From an uncultured Bacilli bacterium (GTDB taxonomy: Bacteria > Bacillota_I > Bacilli_A > RF39 > UBA660): a DNA stretch of 64,000 nucleotides. Positions 29,685-38,341 of this stretch are shown piece after piece. The stretch spans positions 1,701 through 65,700 of the forward strand of contig CAJTZY010000003.1 of the NCBI GenBank assembly GCA_910584085.1, written 5' to 3'. The first letter of the stretch is position 1. Every line of letters starts with the position of its first letter. The notes beneath the pieces are model-generated. The model saw nothing but the letters and a program-made list of their open reading frames with translations. It had not been told where the DNA came from and ran no database searches. A program made the translations under genes and the position numbers.

Positions 29685-31664
29685 ATGGAAAATCAAGAAA
29701 ATAATAAATATTTAGGACAAGAAAAAATATCAAAATTACTGTTAAAATTTTCTATACCTTGCATATTATCTTTACTTATAAGTTCTCTATACAATATAGT
29801 AGATCAAATATTTATAGGTAATAGTGAACTTGGATATTTAGGTAATGCCGCAACGACAGTAGTATTTCCAATTACAATTATAGCAGTAGCGTTTGCATGG
29901 TGTTTTGGTGATGGAACTGCTGCATTTTTATCACTATGTCAAGGTAGAAAAGATACAAAAAATGTGCATAAAGCAGTAGGTAATAGTATTTTAGTTACAC
30001 TCATAATAAGTATAATATTTGTAATTATAGGTTTCTTATTTATGGATAAAATATTATATTTATTTGGTGCTTCCGATACGTCAATTATACTTGCACGTGA
30101 TTACTTTAAAATAATACTCGCAGCAATCCCAGTTTATATGTTAGGTAATATGATGAATGCAGTAATACGTGCAGATGGCTCACCAGCGTTTTCAATGGCA
30201 TCAACACTCATTGGAGCAATAATTAATATCATATTAGATCCAATATTTATATTTGGACTTAAATGGGGAATAAAAGGAGCTGCATGGGCAACTATAATTG
30301 GACAAATAGCTTCATTCATTATTGCTATAATTTATTATTTTAGAAGTAAAACATTTAGATTAAAATTAGATAGTTTTAAAATAAATACTAAATTATTTAG
30401 TAATGTAATTAAGCTTGGGATATCAACATTCATAACCCAAATGTCAATTGTAATTATTTCATTAGTTTGTAATATTATGCTTGCAAGATATGGAGTAAAA
30501 TCTAAATATGGAGCAGATATCCCAATAGCTGTAATAGGAATATCTATGAAAGTTTTTACAATAGTAATAAACATAGTAGTTGGATTAATCTTAGGCGCAC
30601 AACCAATACTTGGATATAATTATGGTTCAAATAACTATGACAGAGTTAAAAAGACATTAAAAAAAGTTTTACAAATAACTGTTATAGTGGGAATAGTAGC
30701 CACATTAATATTTGAACTATGCCCACAAATTGTTATTAAAATGTTTGGAACAGAATCAGATTTATATATGGAATTTGCTACTATGACATTTAGAATTTTC
30801 TTAATGTTTATAATATTTACATGTATAATAAAAATGTCTTCAATTTTCTTTCAGGCAGTAGGTTCACCTTTAAAATCATCAATAGTTTCATTATCTAGAG
30901 ATATTGTATGCTTTGTACCACTTGTTATAATATTACCAAATTATATGGGTATAAAGGGTATTTTATATGCTGCCCCTGTTGCAGATTTTGTGGGTATAAT
31001 AATAACAATTATTTTAATTATTAATTTCTTTAAACATTTAGACAGTAAAAAAGAATTAGTAAATGATAGTGATGCTGTAATAAAGAAATCAAGTAGTGGA
31101 GTTATTATAACCATATCAAGAGAACATGGCTCACAAGGTAAATATATTGGTGAATTAGTCGCTAAAAAATTAGGTATTCCTTATTATTATAAAGAGGTAA
31201 CCGCACTTGTAGCAAGTAAAAGCGGATTAGATAAAGAATTTGTATCTAAGTTAAATGATAGTTCTAATATATTACATGATTTATATTTAACAACAACACC
31301 CATAAAATATGCTATAGAGGCACAAGAAAAGGTAATAAAAGAAATTGCTCAAAATGGATCCTGTGTAATAGTAGGTCGTGCAGCTGATTATGTATTAAAA
31401 GATAAAGAGAATTTAGTTAAAATATTTATTTACGCACCAAAAGATTATCGTATAACTAAAGTAATGGAAATGTATAATGATAATAAGGTAAGTGCTAAAA
31501 AGAATATAGAAAAATCGGATAAAGCAAGAAGAAGCTATTACTCTATTATTTCGGGTAAAGAATGGGGTAATAAAGAAAATTATGATTTATGTATAGATTC
31601 TAAATTAGGTACAGAGAAGACTGCAGACATAATTGTTGATTATATAAAGAATATTAATAAATAA
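29685..31664 (+). CDS. MATE-family efflux transporter fused to a cytidylate-kinase-like (PF13189-type) domain
   Basis: About 450 aa of 12-TM MATE-like sequence (LYNIVDQIFIGN...). A soluble C-terminal domain starts VIITISREHGSQGKYIGELVAKKLGIPYYYKE. Confidence 0.75.
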   Translation: MENQENNKYLGQEKISKLLLKFSIPCILSLLISSLYNIVDQIFIGNSELGYLGNAATTVVFPITIIAVAFAWCFGDGTAAFLSLCQGRKDTKNVHKAVGNSILVTLIISIIFVIIGFLFMDKILYLFGASDTSIILARDYFKIILAAIPVYMLGNMMNAVIRADGSPAFSMASTLIGAIINIILDPIFIFGLKWGIKGAAWATIIGQIASFIIAIIYYFRSKTFRLKLDSFKINTKLFSNVIKLGISTFITQMSIVIISLVCNIMLARYGVKSKYGADIPIAVIGISMKVFTIVINIVVGLILGAQPILGYNYGSNNYDRVKKTLKKVLQITVIVGIVATLIFELCPQIVIKMFGTESDLYMEFATMTFRIFLMFIIFTCIIKMSSIFFQAVGSPLKSSIVSLSRDIVCFVPLVIILPNYMGIKGILYAAPVADFVGIIITIILIINFFKHLDSKKELVNDSDAVIKKSSSGVIITISREHGSQGKYIGELVAKKLGIPYYYKEVTALVASKSGLDKEFVSKLNDSSNILHDLYLTTTPIKYAIEAQEKVIKEIAQNGSCVIVGRAADYVLKDKENLVKIFIYAPKDYRITKVMEMYNDNKVSAKKNIEKSDKARRSYYSIISGKEWGNKENYDLCIDSKLGTEKTADIIVDYIKNINK

Positions 31665-31684
31665 TAAATATTTTAATTATATAG

Positions 31685-31713
31685 AAACCTCTGAAAAATT
31701 CAGAGGTTTTATT
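31685..31713. terminator. bidirectional terminator between convergent genes
   Basis: An 11-bp perfect stem pairs aaacctctgaa with ttcagaggttt. It is flanked by A/T runs on both sides. Confidence 0.85.
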
Positions 31714-31750
31714 ATACCAAATATTTTTATTGATTTTGTCAATATATAGA

Positions 31751-32725
31751 TTATTTATTAATTATTTCGGCTTTACATAAAGATACAAATGCAGGATTAC
31801 TATTATTGTTTCCCACTACTACAACCATACCATATTCACTTTTTAAAATAGTGCCTTGTGCAACAGTTTGACCTCCAGCATTAATGTCTACACCAGTAGT
31901 CCCGACTGGTAAATATGAACGACTTGCAGCCTCACAGTTAGAATCGCATCCAGTAGGTGTAGGAATAGGCGCTGGCAAATAAGTGATTGCATCATTATAT
32001 GTACTACTAGTTATTGTGATAGATGCTATTCTACATATAGATACTGCCTCTTCAGGTACACCTTGATTATTAACTAGTTGAAATAGTCCAGAATTTGGAT
32101 TATTATTTGGTCCAGGTAAAAGTGATCCAGGCCTTCCACTAGCATTATTACCACTTTCCATTGCTATAATTAAGTTATCATTTGGATATAAGGTAATAAT
32201 TTGTTGTATAATATTTCTCATTTGATCTACACATAAACAAGTTGTTGTATTCGCATTACTTCCGGTAGGTCCAGTAGGTCCAGTAGGTCCAGTAGGTCCG
32301 GTAGGTCCAGTAGGTCCGGTAGGTCCAGTAGGTCCAGTAGGTCCGGTAGGTCCAGTAGCTCCAGTAGCTCCAGTAGCTCCAGTAGGTCCGGTAGGTCCAG
32401 TAGCTCCAGTAGCTCCAGTAGGTCCAGTAGCTCCAGTAGGTCCGGTAGGTCCGGTAGGTCCAGTAGCTCCAGTAGGTCCAGTAGGTCCAGTAGGTCCAGT
32501 AGCTCCAGTAGCTCCAGTAGGTCCAGTAGCTCCAGTAGGTCCGGTAGGTCCGGTAGGTCCAGTAGCTCCAGTAGGTCCAGTAGGTCCAGTAGGTCCACCA
32601 GATGGTCCAGTAGGTCCAGTAGGCCCAGTAGGACCTATAATTTGACAACAATTAGGCTTGAGTTTATTATCCTTTTCTATTTTTTTTAAGGCTCTTTTAT
32701 ATAAACTATCATTATTACAATTCAT
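31751..32725 (-). CDS. collagen-like triple-helix-repeat protein, BclA-like exosporium/surface protein
   Basis: A long G-P-T/G-A-T triplet array lies between a short N-terminal region and a ~170-aa globular C-terminal domain. SD aaaggag precedes the ATG at 32725 ([12 protein letters not shown]...). The track start at 32743 contains the SD. Confidence 0.8.
32261..32636 (-). repeat. 9-nt-periodic coding repeat (GPT/GAT collagen triplets) with a higher-order internal duplication
   Basis: ggtccagta/ggtccggta/gctccagta units are tandemly iterated. One phase break occurs at GPSGGPTG. A roughly 70-100-nt block recurs (about 32420-32490 and 32520-32590). Confidence 0.9.
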
Positions 32726-32819
32726 AGATTTTACTCCTTTCAAACTATTATATGACGCATAATGTTATACACTAATAAAAAATGTTTAGTATTTAAATAT
32801 TTCTTTAAAAAAATATTTA

Positions 32820-32828
32820 TGCTATAAT
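32820..32828 (+). promoter_or_regulatory. extended -10 promoter (tgctataat) for the retron transcript
   Basis: TGnTATAAT match. The predicted start ~7 nt downstream coincides with the a1 repeat at 32832-42. Confidence 0.5.
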
Positions 32829-32831
32829 TTA

Positions 32832-33003
32832 TTTGAGCAATAGTGTTTGGATAATTCCAGCTTTAGCGAGTCGTTAAAGTACATAAGTATTTGATTAAAT
32901 AATTGTAATACTACAAAGGACTATTCTACACGTTGTGTAGCCGCTTCGTTACACTTCGCTTTTAGTCCATTTCCATATTACAATATAATTAGTATTGCTT
33001 AAA
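32832..33003 (+). ncRNA. retron msr-msd-like non-coding RNA
   Basis: a1 tttgagcaata (32832-42) pairs with a2 tattgcttaaa (32993-33003): 11 bp with one G-U. G residues at 32843/32845 lie just 3' of a1. The msr-like hairpin spans 32861-32879. The long msd-like stem pairs 32902-10 with 32976-84 and 32918-23 with 32963-68, with an apical hairpin at 32926-40. It sits immediately upstream of the RT on the same strand. Confidence 0.65.
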
Positions 33004-33016
33004 GGAGGTAATAAAA

Positions 33017-33967
33017 ATGTGGAAGTATATAACAAAAAAAGATTGTACCGAATTTTTATTATCTCTAAATTTAATTGATAATAAACTAAGTGATAAAGAA
33101 AAGGTAAAATTACTTTATTCAATTAGTAATAATATAGAAAATAATTACAAAATTCATAAAATAAAGAAACATAATGGAAAATTTAGAACTATTCATGAGC
33201 CTAGTTATTTGCTTAAATCTGTTCAAAGAAAAATATTAAATAATATTTTAAATAATAAATCAATATCTAAATATGCCAAGGCATATCACAAAGGAATAAG
33301 TCTTAAAGATAATGCATTACCACATTTAAGTAAAAAAATAGTTCTCAAATTAGATATTAAAAATTTTTTTGATAGTGTTAACTTTGTAGATATTTATAAT
33401 ACCTGTTTTGGAATAGAATATTTTCCAAAAACTATTGGGATGCTTTTAACTCATCTTTGTACATATTATGATTATCTTCCTCAAGGCGCACCCACCTCAT
33501 CATATATTTCTAATTTAGTTATGAAAGAATTCGATGAAGAAATAGGTGAATATTGTGATAGTTTAAATATATCATATACTAGGTATTCTGATGATATGAC
33601 ATTTTCTGGAGATTTTAACACGAGTGAAATTATAAAAAAAGTAAGAACTATGTTACATAAACTAGGACTTGAATTAAATAATGAAAAAATAAGTGTTATT
33701 AAATATGGTAATAGGCAAAGTGTAACGGGGATAAATGTAAATGAAAAAATACAAGTTCAGATAGATTATAGAAAAAAGATAAGACAAGAGATATATTTTA
33801 TAAGAAAATATGGAATAGAGTCACATTTAAAATATATAAATTATGTTGATAGTAAAGAGACCTATTTAACTAGTTTAATTGGAAAAGTAAATTATGTATT
33901 ACAAATAAATAATAGTGATAAAGAATTTTTAGAATATAAAAAATATTTAAAGGAGTTATATAAATGA
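33017..33967 (+). CDS. retron-type reverse transcriptase
   Basis: 316 aa with no extra domains. RT motifs are LDIKNFFDS, LPQGAPTSSYISN and YSDDMTF. The retron-typical NAxxH (NALPH) and VTG (SVTGINV) motifs are present. SD aaggagg. Confidence 0.85.
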   Translation: MWKYITKKDCTEFLLSLNLIDNKLSDKEKVKLLYSISNNIENNYKIHKIKKHNGKFRTIHEPSYLLKSVQRKILNNILNNKSISKYAKAYHKGISLKDNALPHLSKKIVLKLDIKNFFDSVNFVDIYNTCFGIEYFPKTIGMLLTHLCTYYDYLPQGAPTSSYISNLVMKEFDEEIGEYCDSLNISYTRYSDDMTFSGDFNTSEIIKKVRTMLHKLGLELNNEKISVIKYGNRQSVTGINVNEKIQVQIDYRKKIRQEIYFIRKYGIESHLKYINYVDSKETYLTSLIGKVNYVLQINNSDKEFLEYKKYLKELYK

Positions 33968-34380
33968 AAAAAATAGTTATTGCAGGAAGTGCAAAATTAC
34001 AAAGTGATATAGAATATTTTAAAGAACATTTTGAAAATAAAGGTTATATTATCTTAGACTATCCCCAAAAAATAGATGAATCTAAATTTATGGAAATATA
34101 TCCAAATGTGCATAAAAATTTTTTTGAGTGTATAACAAAAACTGATATATTATTTATTATGAATGCTGACAAAAATGGTACTAATGGATATATTGGTGCG
34201 GAAACTTTTGCAGAATTAACATTTGGTTTAGCACAAAAATTAGTTTATAATAAGGATATTGAATTAGTTATACTAAAAATGCCAGGTAAAGAAGTTGCAT
34301 GTTATGATGAAATTAGTTTATGGCTTAAGCTTGGTTGGATAAAACTATATGAAGGAGATTATTATGAATTTAAGAAATGA
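33964..34380 (+). CDS. nucleoside 2-deoxyribosyltransferase-like (NDT/DNPH1-fold) small protein; candidate retron effector
   Basis: The ATG overlaps the RT stop (ATGA). KIVIAGS forms the first strand. TDILFIMNADKNGTNGYIGAETFAELTFGLA fits the NDT pattern (acidic catalytic residue in a G..E..LG.A context). 138 aa with no DNA-binding extension. Confidence 0.55.
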   Translation: MKKIVIAGSAKLQSDIEYFKEHFENKGYIILDYPQKIDESKFMEIYPNVHKNFFECITKTDILFIMNADKNGTNGYIGAETFAELTFGLAQKLVYNKDIELVILKMPGKEVACYDEISLWLKLGWIKLYEGDYYEFKK

Positions 34381-34924
34381 AATAGAAAATTATATACCAT
34401 TTGATATCGAGGAGGAAAAAATTAAAGAACACTTATTAAAATGGATTGATGAATTTGATGATGTTTTAACTAGAAATAATGAATTTGGTCATTTTACATC
34501 ATCAGCATTCGTAGTAAACAAGGATAGAACTAGAATGCTTGCTGTATATCACAATATATATGATGCTTGGATTTTCCCAGGTGGTCATGCTGATGGAGAA
34601 GGGGATTTACTTTCTGTTGCAGTACGTGAAGTAGAAGAAGAAACAGGCGTAAAGCCCAAAATATTAGATAATTCAATTTTTGCAATTTCAGCCTCACCAA
34701 TAGTTGGTCATGTAAAAAGAGGAAAATATATTCCAGCGCACACACATTTAGATGTTATATATCTATTAGAAGCAGATGATAAAGAACAATTAACTTTTAG
34801 AAAAGATGAAAGCAAAGGTGTAAAGTGGATTACATTTGAAGAGGCAACTTCAAGTAATGTTGTTGATTTTATAAGACCTGTAAATAAAAGATTAATAAAA
34901 AAATTAGAATCATTAAAAAAATAA
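34364..34924 (+). CDS. NUDIX hydrolase
   Basis: Nudix box GGHADGEGDLLSVAVREVEEETGV. SD gaaggag precedes ATG 34364. It overlaps the preceding ORF by 17 nt. Confidence 0.85.
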   Translation: MNLRNEIENYIPFDIEEEKIKEHLLKWIDEFDDVLTRNNEFGHFTSSAFVVNKDRTRMLAVYHNIYDAWIFPGGHADGEGDLLSVAVREVEEETGVKPKILDNSIFAISASPIVGHVKRGKYIPAHTHLDVIYLLEADDKEQLTFRKDESKGVKWITFEEATSSNVVDFIRPVNKRLIKKLESLKK

Positions 34925-34935
34925 AAGTTTTACTT

Positions 34936-34960
34936 AAGACAAATTTTTGTCTTTTTTCTT
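34936..34960 (+). terminator. Rho-independent terminator closing the RT-NDT-NUDIX unit
   Basis: A stem pairing aagacaaa with tttgtctt is followed by a T-run. Confidence 0.75.
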
Positions 34961-35022
34961 ACAAAACTGTAAGGTTTATAATACTTATTTAGTGATATAA
35001 TAAAATTAATGGAGGAGTTAGT

Positions 35023-36129
35023 ATGAACTATATAAATACAATAAAAACTGCAATAATTATATTTCCTTTTATTGCTTTATTATTCACAATACCATTTATA
35101 CTTCATCAGTATCACAAATATGGTTCTATTAATAAACTTAGAGTGCTTATTATTTACTCATTTATTCTTTATATGATAACTATTTATTTTTTAGTTATAT
35201 TACCACTTCCAAGTAGGAATAGTGTTGTACCAAAGAAAAATATGATTCATTTAATTCCATTTGGATTTATTAATGATTTTTTGAGCGAATCGAATTTTGT
35301 ACTAAGTGATCCATCAACATACTTAAATGCAATAAAACACCCAAGTTTTTATACGGTTGCATTTAACATATTAATGACTATTCCATTTGGAATGTATTTA
35401 AGATACTATTTTAAATGTAGTTTTAAAAAAACTTTCATTTTAAGTCTTACACTCAGTTTGTTTTTTGAGATGACACAAATTACTGGATTATACTTTATTT
35501 ATCCATATCCATACCGTGTATTTGATGTTGATGATTTAATAACAAACACACTAGGTGGGGTACTTGGATATCTTATTATTGGAATTTTTATTCGTCATTT
35601 GCCAACTAGAGATGAATTAGACGAAAAATCAAGAACTACTGGAGAAGTTGTTTCAGGATTAAGGAGAGTAACTGTATTTTGTTTAGATATGTTTATATAT
35701 TTATTTATAAGTTTATTTTGTGTAAATAATTATATTAGATTAACCATATTTATAATCTATTATATAATTTGTCCATTATGTATGAATGGAAAAACATTGG
35801 GTAGTAAATTTTTAAATGTAAGATTAGAATTCACTAGATATAAATTTATTAAATGTATGTTAAGGATAATATTTTTATATATTTATTATTTTGCTATACC
35901 ATTTGGCTTAATGTTTGTAAGTTATATAGCAGTTCAAAATTTAAATTTAGAGGCAACTTATTCTATTTATTTTTATGTGATAATTATGTTTATTATCTTT
36001 ATGTTTTATATGATTAATATATTTACTATATTAATAAAGAAAAAAATATTTTATGATAAGTTATTTAAAGTTAACTATAAAAGTACAATAAATGAAAATA
36101 AATTAAGCAAAGCTAATTTAGAGGAGTAG
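35023..36129 (+). CDS. VanZ-like N-terminal domain fused to an RDD-like C-terminal membrane domain
   Basis: VanZ-type motifs are IPFGFINDF, ILMTIPFGMYLRYYF and VDDLITNTLGGVLGYLI. A second multi-TM module follows GLRRVTVFCLDMFIY. Confidence 0.55.
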   Translation: MNYINTIKTAIIIFPFIALLFTIPFILHQYHKYGSINKLRVLIIYSFILYMITIYFLVILPLPSRNSVVPKKNMIHLIPFGFINDFLSESNFVLSDPSTYLNAIKHPSFYTVAFNILMTIPFGMYLRYYFKCSFKKTFILSLTLSLFFEMTQITGLYFIYPYPYRVFDVDDLITNTLGGVLGYLIIGIFIRHLPTRDELDEKSRTTGEVVSGLRRVTVFCLDMFIYLFISLFCVNNYIRLTIFIIYYIICPLCMNGKTLGSKFLNVRLEFTRYKFIKCMLRIIFLYIYYFAIPFGLMFVSYIAVQNLNLEATYSIYFYVIIMFIIFMFYMINIFTILIKKKIFYDKLFKVNYKSTINENKLSKANLEE

Positions 36130-36131
36130 GT

Positions 36132-36470
36132 ATGAAAAAGGAATTAATATTTGGAATAGTTAGTAGTTTTATACTAATAATAATTTTAATTATAAGTTTT
36201 TATTTTATAAAAGATATAAAAACTTATATACTTAATTTACCAAGTTTAGATAATTTAGAAAGTATAAATATAGAAAATATTAATGAAAGTAAAGAATATA
36301 GTTTAAAATCTGATATTGAAAAAATATTAAATAATTTAAATGGTATAAAAAGAGTAACAAATAAAGAGAGTATACAAGATTATCCTATCGATGTTGTAGA
36401 TAAAATAAAAATTGACTTTATTCATAAAGAGGGTGGAATATCCACAATATATGTGTATAAAAAAAAATAA
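36132..36470 (+). CDS. hypothetical membrane-anchored protein, apparently truncated at an A9 homopolymer
   Basis: N-terminal TM segment. The ORF ends right after the A9 run at 36459-67. The +1 frame continues as NNKYFIEQPYNGIYAISKYEYELIEKLL* to 36552. Confidence 0.5.
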   Translation: MKKELIFGIVSSFILIIILIISFYFIKDIKTYILNLPSLDNLESINIENINESKEYSLKSDIEKILNNLNGIKRVTNKESIQDYPIDVVDKIKIDFIHKEGGISTIYVYKKK

Positions 36471-36603
36471 TAAATACTTTATTGAGCAACCATATAATGG
36501 TATTTATGCAATATCTAAATATGAATATGAGTTAATAGAAAAACTATTGTAAAATAAAAAATGAACCAAATGTTCATTAATTAATTAAAAATAATATATA
36601 CTA

Positions 36604-36934: not shown

Positions 36935-37079
36935 TTTTTTTGATACAAATATTGTAAAATATATTTTAATTTATATATTTTATAATACTTTTGTTATAAT
37001 ATTGTTGAAATAAGTTATATAAAGTGTTAATCTAATATTAGATATATAATTATAAATTAACTGATGGAGGATGGATAAA

Positions 37080-37730
37080 ATGAAAGTAAAAATATGCGCT
37101 AATAGAAGTATTGAGGATGCTAGTGCCTGCATAACAGCTGGTGCAGATATAATAGGTGTATTAGTTGGACAAGAACATACTAGTAGTGATTTTATTGATA
37201 AAGAAACTGCAAAATCAATTGTGAACTTTGTAGATGGTAGATGTGATGTTTCCCTAGTTACGCATCTTAAAAACGCAGAACAAATTATAGAACTTACAAA
37301 GTACATAGGAAATAATATTATTCAGTTACATTCTGATATATTAGAAAGTGAAGTTGAAAAAATAAGAAAATCATTACCTGATGTCAAATTAGTTAGATTG
37401 ATACATATATCTAGTGATGGAAAAATATGTACAGATTATAAGAATATGAAATATGTGGATTTTTATTTATTAGATAGCTTTAATTTATCTACTAATCAAG
37501 TTGGTGGTACAGGATTAACACATGATTGGAATAAAAGTAAAGAATTAATTGAAATGCTTGATAAACCTACTTTTTTAGCGGGCGGATTAAATCCTGATAA
37601 TGTAGCGAGTGCTATAAAATTATCAAATCCATATGGCGTAGATGTTAATAGTGGTTGCAAAAATGAACTAGGATTTAAATCTAGTGATAAAGTAAAAAAA
37701 TTTGTATACAATGCAAAAAATGCGAAGTAA
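37080..37730 (+). CDS. trpF: phosphoribosylanthranilate isomerase-like (TrpF family), stand-alone
   Basis: MKVKICANRSIEDASACITAGADIIGVLVG... and FLAGGLNPDNV...PYGVDVNSG are TrpF-like. No other trp genes are nearby. Confidence 0.65.
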   Translation: MKVKICANRSIEDASACITAGADIIGVLVGQEHTSSDFIDKETAKSIVNFVDGRCDVSLVTHLKNAEQIIELTKYIGNNIIQLHSDILESEVEKIRKSLPDVKLVRLIHISSDGKICTDYKNMKYVDFYLLDSFNLSTNQVGGTGLTHDWNKSKELIEMLDKPTFLAGGLNPDNVASAIKLSNPYGVDVNSGCKNELGFKSSDKVKKFVYNAKNAK

Positions 37731-37741
37731 AGGAAAAAAAT

Positions 37742-38341
37742 ATGAAGAATAAAGATATATTAGATAAGATAAACAGTTTATCAAATGAAGAAAAAAGAAA
37801 TTTAGATTACAATGAATTGGTAAATATTATTAATGTATTATCACCCGATGAAATTATAAGCTTAAGTAATATAATTGGCTATCCCGTTTTTACAAGACTT
37901 TGCATGGGAGATTTAAAACATAAATTTGTATTATTACAGGATGGGGCAGCAGCAATAATAGTAAATAATAAAGGACAAATTTTATTGCAGAGTAGAGCTG
38001 ATCGTGATAAATGGGGATTACCAGGAGGATGTCAAGAACTTGGTGAAAGATTTCAGGATACAGTAATACGTGAGGTAAAAGAGGAAACAAATTTAGATGT
38101 TTTAGAGAAAGACTTAGAATTAATTGATATAGTGTCTGGAAAAAGTAGGAGAAATGAATATCCAAACGGAGATGTTGTTATTAATAATACAGCACTCTAC
38201 CTAATAAAGAACTATTCTGGTGAATTAAAATGGGATACAGAATCTAAAGAAATGAAATTTTTTGATTTGGATAAATTACCAATTAACCAAAATGATCCAG
38301 ATTTAATTAAAATATATATTAATTATGTAAATAAAATGTAG
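37742..38341 (+). CDS. NUDIX hydrolase
   Basis: Nudix box GGCQELGERFQDTVIREVKEETNL. Confidence 0.85.
   Translation: MKNKDILDKINSLSNEEKRNLDYNELVNIINVLSPDEIISLSNIIGYPVFTRLCMGDLKHKFVLLQDGAAAIIVNNKGQILLQSRADRDKWGLPGGCQELGERFQDTVIREVKEETNLDVLEKDLELIDIVSGKSRRNEYPNGDVVINNTALYLIKNYSGELKWDTESKEMKFFDLDKLPINQNDPDLIKIYINYVNKM

Follow-up and report, generated by a model that had tools for sequence, protein, structure and literature searches.

In a 64,000-nt stretch of the genome of an uncultured Bacilli bacterium (contig CAJTZY010000003.1, positions 1,701 to 65,700; hereinafter referred to as the window), the reverse transcriptase (RT) gene of a retron is followed by overlapping genes for a 138-aa protein (hereinafter P138), which has the fold of nucleoside 2-deoxyribosyltransferases (NDT), and a NUDIX hydrolase. 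A previous interpretation of the same DNA (the sequence-only reading) took these two proteins to be the effector of the adjacent retron. Comparison with other genomes indicated that P138 and the NUDIX hydrolase probably constitute a conserved two-enzyme nucleotide module that is independent of retrons, and that here stands beside an orphan retron without being its dedicated effector. The module occurs in low-GC gut Bacillota carrying the labels uncultured Bacilli, Clostridia and Tenericutes. The finding is mostly an ordinary one: a known kind of orphan retron next to an uncharacterised, conventional-looking pair of nucleotide-metabolism genes.

When one genome per GTDB species was scanned, 29 loci with P138 relatives of 63-77% identity were obtained. 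These were metagenome-assembled gut genomes labelled as uncultured Bacilli, Clostridia, Tenericutes or Firmicutes, with one labelled Muribaculaceae, and the genes adjoining P138 were assessed by tblastn with the window proteins. No RT was found near P138 at any of the 29 species-level loci. Conversely, P138 and the window's NUDIX gene were both missing near the RT from all 80 metagenome loci with related RTs (42-71% identity), where the downstream genes varied in family, size, strand and spacing. Co-occurrence with retron RTs had been proposed as a check, a pair found ubiquitously without RTs being taken as the sign of housekeeping genes. The pair did prove to be widespread without RTs, and its role as the effector of the adjacent retron is therefore not supported.

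The association between P138 and the NUDIX hydrolase was of another kind. An orthologous NUDIX gene (63-82% identity) abutted or overlapped the P138 stop codon in 16 of the 29 loci, and a 29-residue remnant of it was present in a 17th; three loci ended too soon for the downstream gene to be judged. Natural P138-NUDIX fusion proteins were also identified (P0159 and P0142), as was a separate fusion of P138 with an HD domain. The two genes are a real pair, far beyond chance, and their conserved adjacency and natural fusions indicate that the proteins are true functional partners, in line with what had been suspected from the window itself. P138 stood without an adjacent orthologous NUDIX gene in about 10 of the 29 species, which weakens the suggestion that the NUDIX enzyme acts as an antidote to P138.

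Upstream of P138 in other species, the most frequent gene encoded one of two kinds of small NDT-like paralogue, located directly 5' of the P138 homologue (L013 to L034; e.g., L016:5601-5990 and L034:5675-6003). A PF05014-like kind with a GRGxHIELGMA motif (PF05014, E=1.8e-6) preceded P138 in 7 of the 29 loci. The other kind, P138-like with CGSLRF and GSSTKSEIEFA motifs, preceded it in about nine and was fused to P138 in L018, giving a 263-aa protein. The ancestral module thus looks like two NDT-fold enzymes plus a Nudix protein; no second P138 or NDT-like paralogue was found in the 64-kb window. The nearest P138 relatives outside the clade of the window (74-78% identity) were encoded near tsaE-tsaD-rimI-lon, after the gene of a HAD phosphatase or of another NUDIX protein, with no RT. 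In L021, a fragment of an isochorismatase-family (nicotinamidase-like) gene was directly upstream of P138. A distant homologue (approximately 40% identity) was detected on the megaplasmid NZ_CP081847.1 of Enterococcus raffinosus (L129; 885606-885842), where the annotation covers only part of it, as a hypothetical protein of 81 aa. Its neighbours encode a deoxynucleoside kinase, PnuC, a bifunctional 5'-nucleotidase and a metallophosphoesterase. Since this is the only P138 match in a named organism not represented by a metagenome-assembled genome, E. raffinosus is a possible experimental entry point. P138 was absent from 50,697 phage records (tblastn) and from IMG/VR viral contigs, so that, within the sensitivity of these scans, a prophage origin of the pair is unsupported. 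Searches of the literature on retrons with Nudix, and on NDT-Nudix gene neighbourhoods, yielded no description of the present arrangement.

The window is very AT-rich (G+C content, 25%), and the locus is composed of the following features.

32744-33016: intergenic region 5' of the RT gene
32820-32828, + strand: extended -10 promoter of the retron cassette (TGcTATAAT), conserved with unchanged spacing across 27 related loci
32835-33000, + strand: retron non-coding RNA (ncRNA; msr-msd), recognized by inverted repeats and an RNAalifold consensus
33017-33967, + strand: retron RT, 316 aa, recognized by PADLOC, Pfam and NCBIfam matches
33964-34380, + strand: P138, 138 aa, assigned by an AlphaFold2 model with Foldseek and by invariant residues
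34364-34924, + strand: NUDIX hydrolase, 186 aa, assigned by PF00293 (E=2.8e-14)
34936-34957, + strand: weak AT-rich hairpin (AAGACA / TGTCTT) with a T-run on its 3' side, read directly from the sequence
35023 (start), after the hairpin: separate gene for a VanZ-family membrane protein

Both open reading frames (ORFs) of the pair had been correctly delimited in the sequence-only reading, together with their 17-nt overlap and the separate Shine-Dalgarno sequence of the second. The stop codon of the RT gene and the start codon of P138 share the nucleotides ATGA (33964-33967), a 4-nt overlap. The P138 stop codon is at 34378-34380, and the NUDIX ORF overlaps it from an ATG at 34364, with the Shine-Dalgarno sequence GAAGGAG 6 nt 5' of this start. 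The start at 34364 was adopted because gene callers chose it in public contigs identical to the window and because NUDIX orthologues aligned with the window protein from residue 1; a longer ORF starting at 34349 (191 aa) was dropped in its favour. A terminator scan found no terminator between the RT gene and P138. The hairpin at 34936-34957 is likely the end of the transcription unit, and the same scan did not call it because its stem has fewer than three G-C pairs. The promoter at 32820-32828 is probably the only one upstream of this four-part transcription unit, and since the retron cassette lies immediately 5' of the pair, P138 and the NUDIX gene are probably transcribed together with it. 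The dN/dS ratios of the RT, P138 and NUDIX genes were 0.14-0.24, indicative of purifying selection on all three.

The arrangement RT-P138-NUDIX with the same ATGA overlap was found in only four public contigs, one of which (L009) is identical to the window. In the others, P138 was 89% (L040 and L041) or 86% (L042) identical to that of the window, and RT identity was 82-89%. The VanZ gene followed in L009 and L041, the only linked contigs that reach past the NUDIX gene. In L042, the NUDIX gene was split into two frames of 34 and 129 aa (L042:1890-2449), by either a real frameshift or an error in this single-run assembly.

Close relatives of the RT were found in other surroundings. The RT P0274 (78.5-80% identical to the window RT) overlaps the cysteine desulfurase gene iscS by 17 nt, with mnmA following (L127:1498-1514), and mnmA starts 4 nt after the RT P0275 (78-79%; L125:4954-4958). 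Since these sister cassettes join iscS or mnmA as tightly as the window RT joins P138, the tight coupling in the window is not diagnostic. The tight downstream junction appears to be a habit of this cassette in compact genomes, not the mark of an effector. A further RT, P0273 (L123), is located between infC-rpmI-rplT and a gene for a large NPCBM-domain protein. It is 89.8% identical to the RT of L042 versus 82.5% to that of the window, which places it as a nested member of the P138-linked clade. Its stop codon is immediately followed by a degenerate remnant of 17 codons from the 5' end of P138 (MNKITITGSTKLKIYIK*; L123:4945-5000), and then by unrelated sequence. This copy would therefore derive from a P138-linked ancestor, the pair having been lost or left behind. 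Its RT gene is intact and under purifying selection (dN/dS 0.16-0.23), which argues that the retron persists and is maintained without P138 and the NUDIX hydrolase.

DNA homology between the window and the retron copies at other sites started at 32808-32814, within 6 nt, and ended at the RT stop codon for L125 and L127. The promoter, ncRNA and RT gene therefore appear to form a discrete unit of approximately 1.16 kb. This unit (window 32809-33967; also in L123, L125, L127 and L042) was found at unrelated chromosomal sites, with no recombinase gene within it. The sister cassettes in L125 and L127 are directly 5' of housekeeping genes for tRNA thiolation, and cassettes of this type may routinely drive or share the transcription of host genes.

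Judged from its RT and the adjacent ncRNA with a1/a2 repeats, the retron is a genuine one of the Ec107-like orphan branch. The RT matched the PADLOC model RT_Ec107-like over residues 9-313 (E=1.9e-129), better than it matched the III-A and II-A models. It also matched Pfam RVT_1 (E=8e-25) and, below cutoff, the NCBIfam model of the retron St85 family (E=3e-64), and it carries a YSDD active site and a VTG motif. The idea that its C-terminus had been altered by the junction with P138 was rejected, as the RT ends where its relatives end. The 200 nt upstream of the RT gene are conserved in relatives. They contain the inverted repeats a1 (32837-32844) and a2 (32991-32998). Between these repeats lie two hairpins of the msr (32849-32858 and 32861-32879) and the long stem of the msd (32902-32923 / 32963-32984). 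An RNAalifold consensus of 27 non-redundant sequences had 35 pairs, of which 13 showed compensatory double changes, including three in a1/a2. A search of positions 31000-36500 against Rfam gave no retron ncRNA family and only chance matches to miRNAs; the ncRNA was therefore established by comparative alignment. The RT family was not found in IMG/VR. According to Mestre et al. (2020; PMC7736814), the cassettes of the Ec107 branch of clade 2 (Retron-Eco5) are orphans that lack a conserved protein partner. A 2026 survey of retrons in SPIRE mentions an Ec107-like ncRNA model but neither NDT nor Nudix.

P138 had 591 homologues in a 90%-clustered database, typically 131-134 aa long and 65-78% identical to it, and the family comprised 166 clusters at 50% identity; 45 columns were invariant among 21 close relatives. 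No Pfam or NCBIfam model matched P138 at E<0.1, and no match was obtained to PF05014, PF15891, PF14359 or similar family models. Searched singly against Pfam, 50 divergent relatives gave only one weak match, to DUF4406 (E=0.028), and a profile of the 50 found nothing relevant among PDB sequences. Against PADLOC, P138 showed only weak matches to AbiO, Nhi and JetA (E at least 1.5e-4; the best was to AbiO, over a partial region) and none to a retron effector model.

The AlphaFold2 model of P138, built on the alignment of 21 close relatives, had a pLDDT of 92.3 and a pTM of 0.87. It is a three-layer alpha/beta structure with five parallel strands, and structure comparison placed it in the NDT/DNPH1/MilB fold. 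The protein is a single compact domain with no additional module, as had been noted previously. In a Foldseek search of the PDB, the top match was BcmB (4jen, E=2.7e-4), a cytidine monophosphate (CMP) N-glycosidase, followed by a putative NDT of Parabacteroides (4mcj, E=3.6e-4) and the NDT of Trypanosoma brucei (E=5.7e-4), and then by another CMP N-glycosidase, MilB, and human DNPH1. Trypanosomatid and cyanobacterial NDTs were among the best matches. Overall, the fold matches had E-values of 3e-4 to 1e-2 and TM-scores of 0.5-0.62, and TIR-STING and SPARTA TIR domains appeared lower in the list. Among viral structures (BFVD), the top matches were annotated as nucleoside 2-deoxyribosyltransferases, and the matches included a giant-virus Nudix protein of 412 aa. 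The structure search suggested in the sequence-only reading thus placed P138 in the NDT fold class that it had proposed, and not in an unrelated family. Together, these results support P138 as a distinct, unannotated family of the NDT/DNPH1/MilB fold class, as modelled.

The first strand of P138, KIVIAGS, corresponds to residues 3-9, and the segment GYIGAETFAELTFGLA, in which a catalytic Glu had been proposed, to residues 75-90. Across the 50 divergent relatives, only Asn67 and Glu84 were invariant, which supports that candidate; Ser9, Pro34, Tyr76-Ile77-Gly78, Phe82 and Glu116 were nearly so. Glu84 aligned with a conserved Glu of the CGSLRF-type paralogue (hhalign probability, 96.8%). It was also in register with the Glu of the ELG motif in the PF05014-like paralogue, an alignment that is not significant alone, and with Glu104 of human DNPH1, for which the hhalign comparison was not significant (probability, 0.9%), so that the register is only a hint. 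The DNPH1 sequence used was verified against PDB entries, and its catalytic residues are Tyr24, Asp80 and Glu104. The Tyr and Asp partners were not conserved in P138: Asp80 falls on Phe53 in the hhalign register, and strand 1 as read directly contains no Tyr. P138 is a candidate nucleoside-monophosphate N-glycosidase on the basis of the modelled fold and the position of Glu84.

The NUDIX hydrolase was confirmed as a member of its family, having the Nudix fold and the significant PF00293 match given above. The core of its Nudix box, REVEEETGV, fits REUxEExGU. The strict 23-residue pattern Gx5Ex7REUxEExGU was unmatched, the first Glu being one residue early (GGHADGEGDLLSVAVREVEEETGV); the box is therefore not the perfect one that had been described. 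The closest solved structure was PDB 3fcm (E=3.4e-52). NCBIfam gave weak matches, far below cutoffs, to Nudix models for NMN-adenylyltransferase/ADP-ribose pyrophosphatase. No significant match was found in PADLOC-DB 2.0, the best being PDC-S07 (E=0.0066).

Nudix enzymes release nucleoside monophosphates. In the reaction sequence that we consider the most plausible, the NUDIX hydrolase would act first, on a pyrophosphate-linked nucleotide (a (deoxy)nucleoside triphosphate ((d)NTP), a nucleoside diphosphate linked to a further moiety (NDP-X) or a dinucleotide), and yield a nucleoside 5'-monophosphate. P138 would act second, with Glu84 cleaving the N-glycosidic bond of the monophosphate to give a free base and (deoxy)ribose 5-phosphate. 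The net role of the two enzymes would be a salvage or house-cleaning route. This order is proposed because BcmB, MilB and DNPH1 act on nucleoside monophosphates, because Nudix enzymes produce them, and because the recurring partners of P138 are nucleotide phosphohydrolases. A two-step attack on nucleotides had already been put forward from the window, with glycosidic cleavage preceding pyrophosphate hydrolysis; its chemistry is reasonable, and its order is probably reversed, since the best structural matches act on nucleoside 5'-monophosphates. As for the retron, a mobile orphan cassette would have come to precede P138 and the NUDIX gene, in a position where other species have the gene of an NDT-like paralogue, of a HAD phosphatase or of a further Nudix protein, and the co-transcription of the pair with the retron would be accidental.

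Several observations weigh against an independent metabolic module. P138 has no significant match to any NDT Pfam model and does not conserve the Tyr/Asp partners of DNPH1, so its chemistry could differ from that outlined here; the activities of both enzymes are predicted ones. The genes flanking P138 were not conserved across species, apart from those of the paralogue and the NUDIX hydrolase (213 neighbour proteins fell into 130 clusters), and serine recombinase genes lay near the module in three loci, which argues against a classic core-genome housekeeping operon. Further, the ATGA overlap was kept in three lineages whose RTs are 82-89% identical to that of the window, and this retention, together with the lack of a terminator between RT and P138, would also fit a real operon partnership.

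The last point bears on the idea that, in this narrow lineage, an orphan Ec107-like retron recently captured the pre-existing P138-NUDIX pair as its effector, so that the RT and its multicopy single-stranded DNA (msDNA) would restrain the NDT-fold enzyme, and phage infection would lift this restraint and lead to degradation of the pool of nucleotides or NAD. Such a capture would account for the single conserved promoter, the ATGA and 17-nt overlaps, the unterminated RT-P138 junction, the purifying selection on all three genes and the persistence of the arrangement in L040, L041 and L042 over approximately 10-18% protein divergence. NDT-like proteins are effectors of type II retrons, and modular effector swapping has been proposed (PMC7736814). 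We nevertheless regard capture as very improbable. The linkage is confined to one small clade and one chromosomal context, whereas the pair is older and independent, with fusions of its own and no RT at the 29 loci. The clade-nested RT of L123 lost the pair and yet is intact and constrained, and equally tight junctions with iscS or mnmA are seen in the sister cassettes. Unlike type II effectors, P138 has no DNA-binding module, and none of the PADLOC models for retron effectors matches it; in the linked clade, it retains all family-invariant residues without special changes. A small probability is retained for capture because of the real operon wiring, the NDT-fold effectors of type II retrons and the accepted model of effector swapping (PMC7736814). 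The corresponding picture is highly doubtful in our judgement: an orphan retron in the course of gaining an effector, with two enzymes under retron control that lack the usual DNA-binding adaptor, and L123 as a derivative that lost the effector again. Were it correct, this locus would provide a record of effector acquisition by retrons.

Two other accounts dispense with the retron. The NDT-like paralogue, P138 and the NUDIX hydrolase could together be a conflict system that has so far escaped recognition, serving to deplete nucleotides in defence or as a toxin-antidote set, and brought near the retron by the clustering of defence genes in islands. The variable genomic flanks, the serine recombinases at three loci, a CRISPR-Cas locus 3 kb from the module in L001 and the small, patchy family (166 clusters) are consistent with this, as is the recurrence of NDT and TIR folds in immune systems, TIR-STING and SPARTA TIR domains being among the lower Foldseek matches. 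Neither protein had a significant PADLOC match, however, and P138 was not detected in the phage records or IMG/VR contigs. P138 is very highly conserved for a defence gene, with identities of 63-77% between species and 45 invariant columns. Its neighbours include tsaE-tsaD-rimI-lon, HAD phosphatases and salvage genes, and about 10 of the 29 species tolerate it with no NUDIX gene next to it, so that we give a conflict system very little credence. It is unlikely, too, that the substrates belong to the NAD family, in which case the Nudix substrate would be NAD(H) or ADP-ribose, and P138 would be an N-glycosidase releasing nicotinamide from nicotinamide mononucleotide (NMN) or nicotinamide riboside (NR), or from NAD, in NAD turnover or salvage as opposed to (d)NTP sanitation. 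What points to NAD is that the E. raffinosus homologue adjoins pnuC, which encodes a nicotinamide riboside transporter, that the nicotinamidase-like fragment directly precedes P138 in L021, that TIR-type NADases are among the weaker fold matches, and that the weak NCBIfam matches of the NUDIX protein are to NMN-adenylyltransferase/ADP-ribose pyrophosphatase models. These matches all lie far below their cutoffs, the context evidence comes from single loci, and the top fold matches of P138 are CMP/deoxynucleoside-monophosphate glycosidases and NDTs, not NADases.

A nucleotide module independent of the retron therefore remains the account that we prefer. The locus illustrates that a retron effector cannot be called from RT adjacency or translational overlap alone, and a tempting false positive is removed. 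P138 represents a small, highly conserved family without a Pfam model that is tied to a specific Nudix protein, NDT-like paralogues and HAD phosphatases. With its NUDIX partner, it is a candidate route of nucleotide salvage or sanitation in low-GC gut bacteria known mainly from metagenome-assembled genomes. The points of interest are modest, namely this unannotated family and the discrete, relocating cassette of promoter, ncRNA and RT.

Other genes were noted around the locus. Just upstream of the retron and divergent from it (31751-32743, - strand) is a gene for a 330-aa collagen triple-helix repeat protein with long runs of GPT/GAT triplets (Pfam Collagen, E=7e-16), which we take to resemble exosporium proteins of the BclA type. 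Positions 29685-31664 (+ strand) encode a 659-aa fusion of a MatE efflux/polysaccharide-transporter domain and a C-terminal cytidylate-kinase-like domain (PF13189, E=2e-47). A PRA-isomerase-family gene (37071-37730, + strand) is followed after 11 nt by a second, unrelated NUDIX gene (37742-38341; PF00293, E=7e-17), so that another Nudix pairing (37071-38341) is present less than 3 kb from the P138-NUDIX locus.

Among characterized proteins, P138 most resembles DNPH1/Rcl, MilB and BcmB, its best Foldseek matches, with which it shares the small flavodoxin-like fold of approximately 130-150 aa. As in these enzymes, a Gly-Ser follows strand 1. The conserved Glu84, at the beginning of the helix after strand 4, falls in register with Glu104 of DNPH1 in an alignment that is not significant alone. 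P138 differs from DNPH1 in having no significant sequence similarity to it (hhalign probability below 1%) and no equivalents of Tyr24 and Asp80. Peculiar to P138 is the invariant Asn67, with Tyr76 and Glu116 conserved as well; the activity of P138 is a predicted one. The NUDIX hydrolase aligned over its full length, including an N-terminal helical extension, with 3fcm, a structural-genomics NUDIX hydrolase in which the first Glu of the Nudix box is shifted in the same way; since 3fcm is itself uncharacterised, it gives no information on the substrate.

The retron is comparable to Retron-Eco5 (Ec107) in the full-length match of its RT to the Ec107-like model, the covarying a1/a2 stem and the variability of downstream genes among relatives. 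Retron-Eco5 is from E. coli, whereas the present retron, known from sequence alone, is from a low-GC gut lineage of Bacillota, and its cassette has become part of one probable transcription unit with the genes of two nucleotide enzymes. In type II retrons, the effector consists of an NDT-like and a DNA-binding domain (PMC7736814, Table 1), and the locus resembles these retrons in that an NDT-superfamily protein is encoded beside a retron RT and ncRNA. In contrast, P138 has no DNA-binding domain and no match to a PADLOC type II effector model. The RTs of type II retrons belong to clades 1 or 9, whereas that of the window belongs to the Ec107-like/III-A-related group. Finally, a type II effector would be expected to show specific, phylogenetically conserved co-occurrence with a retron RT, while P138 accompanies an RT only in the one small clade of L009, L040, L041 and L042.

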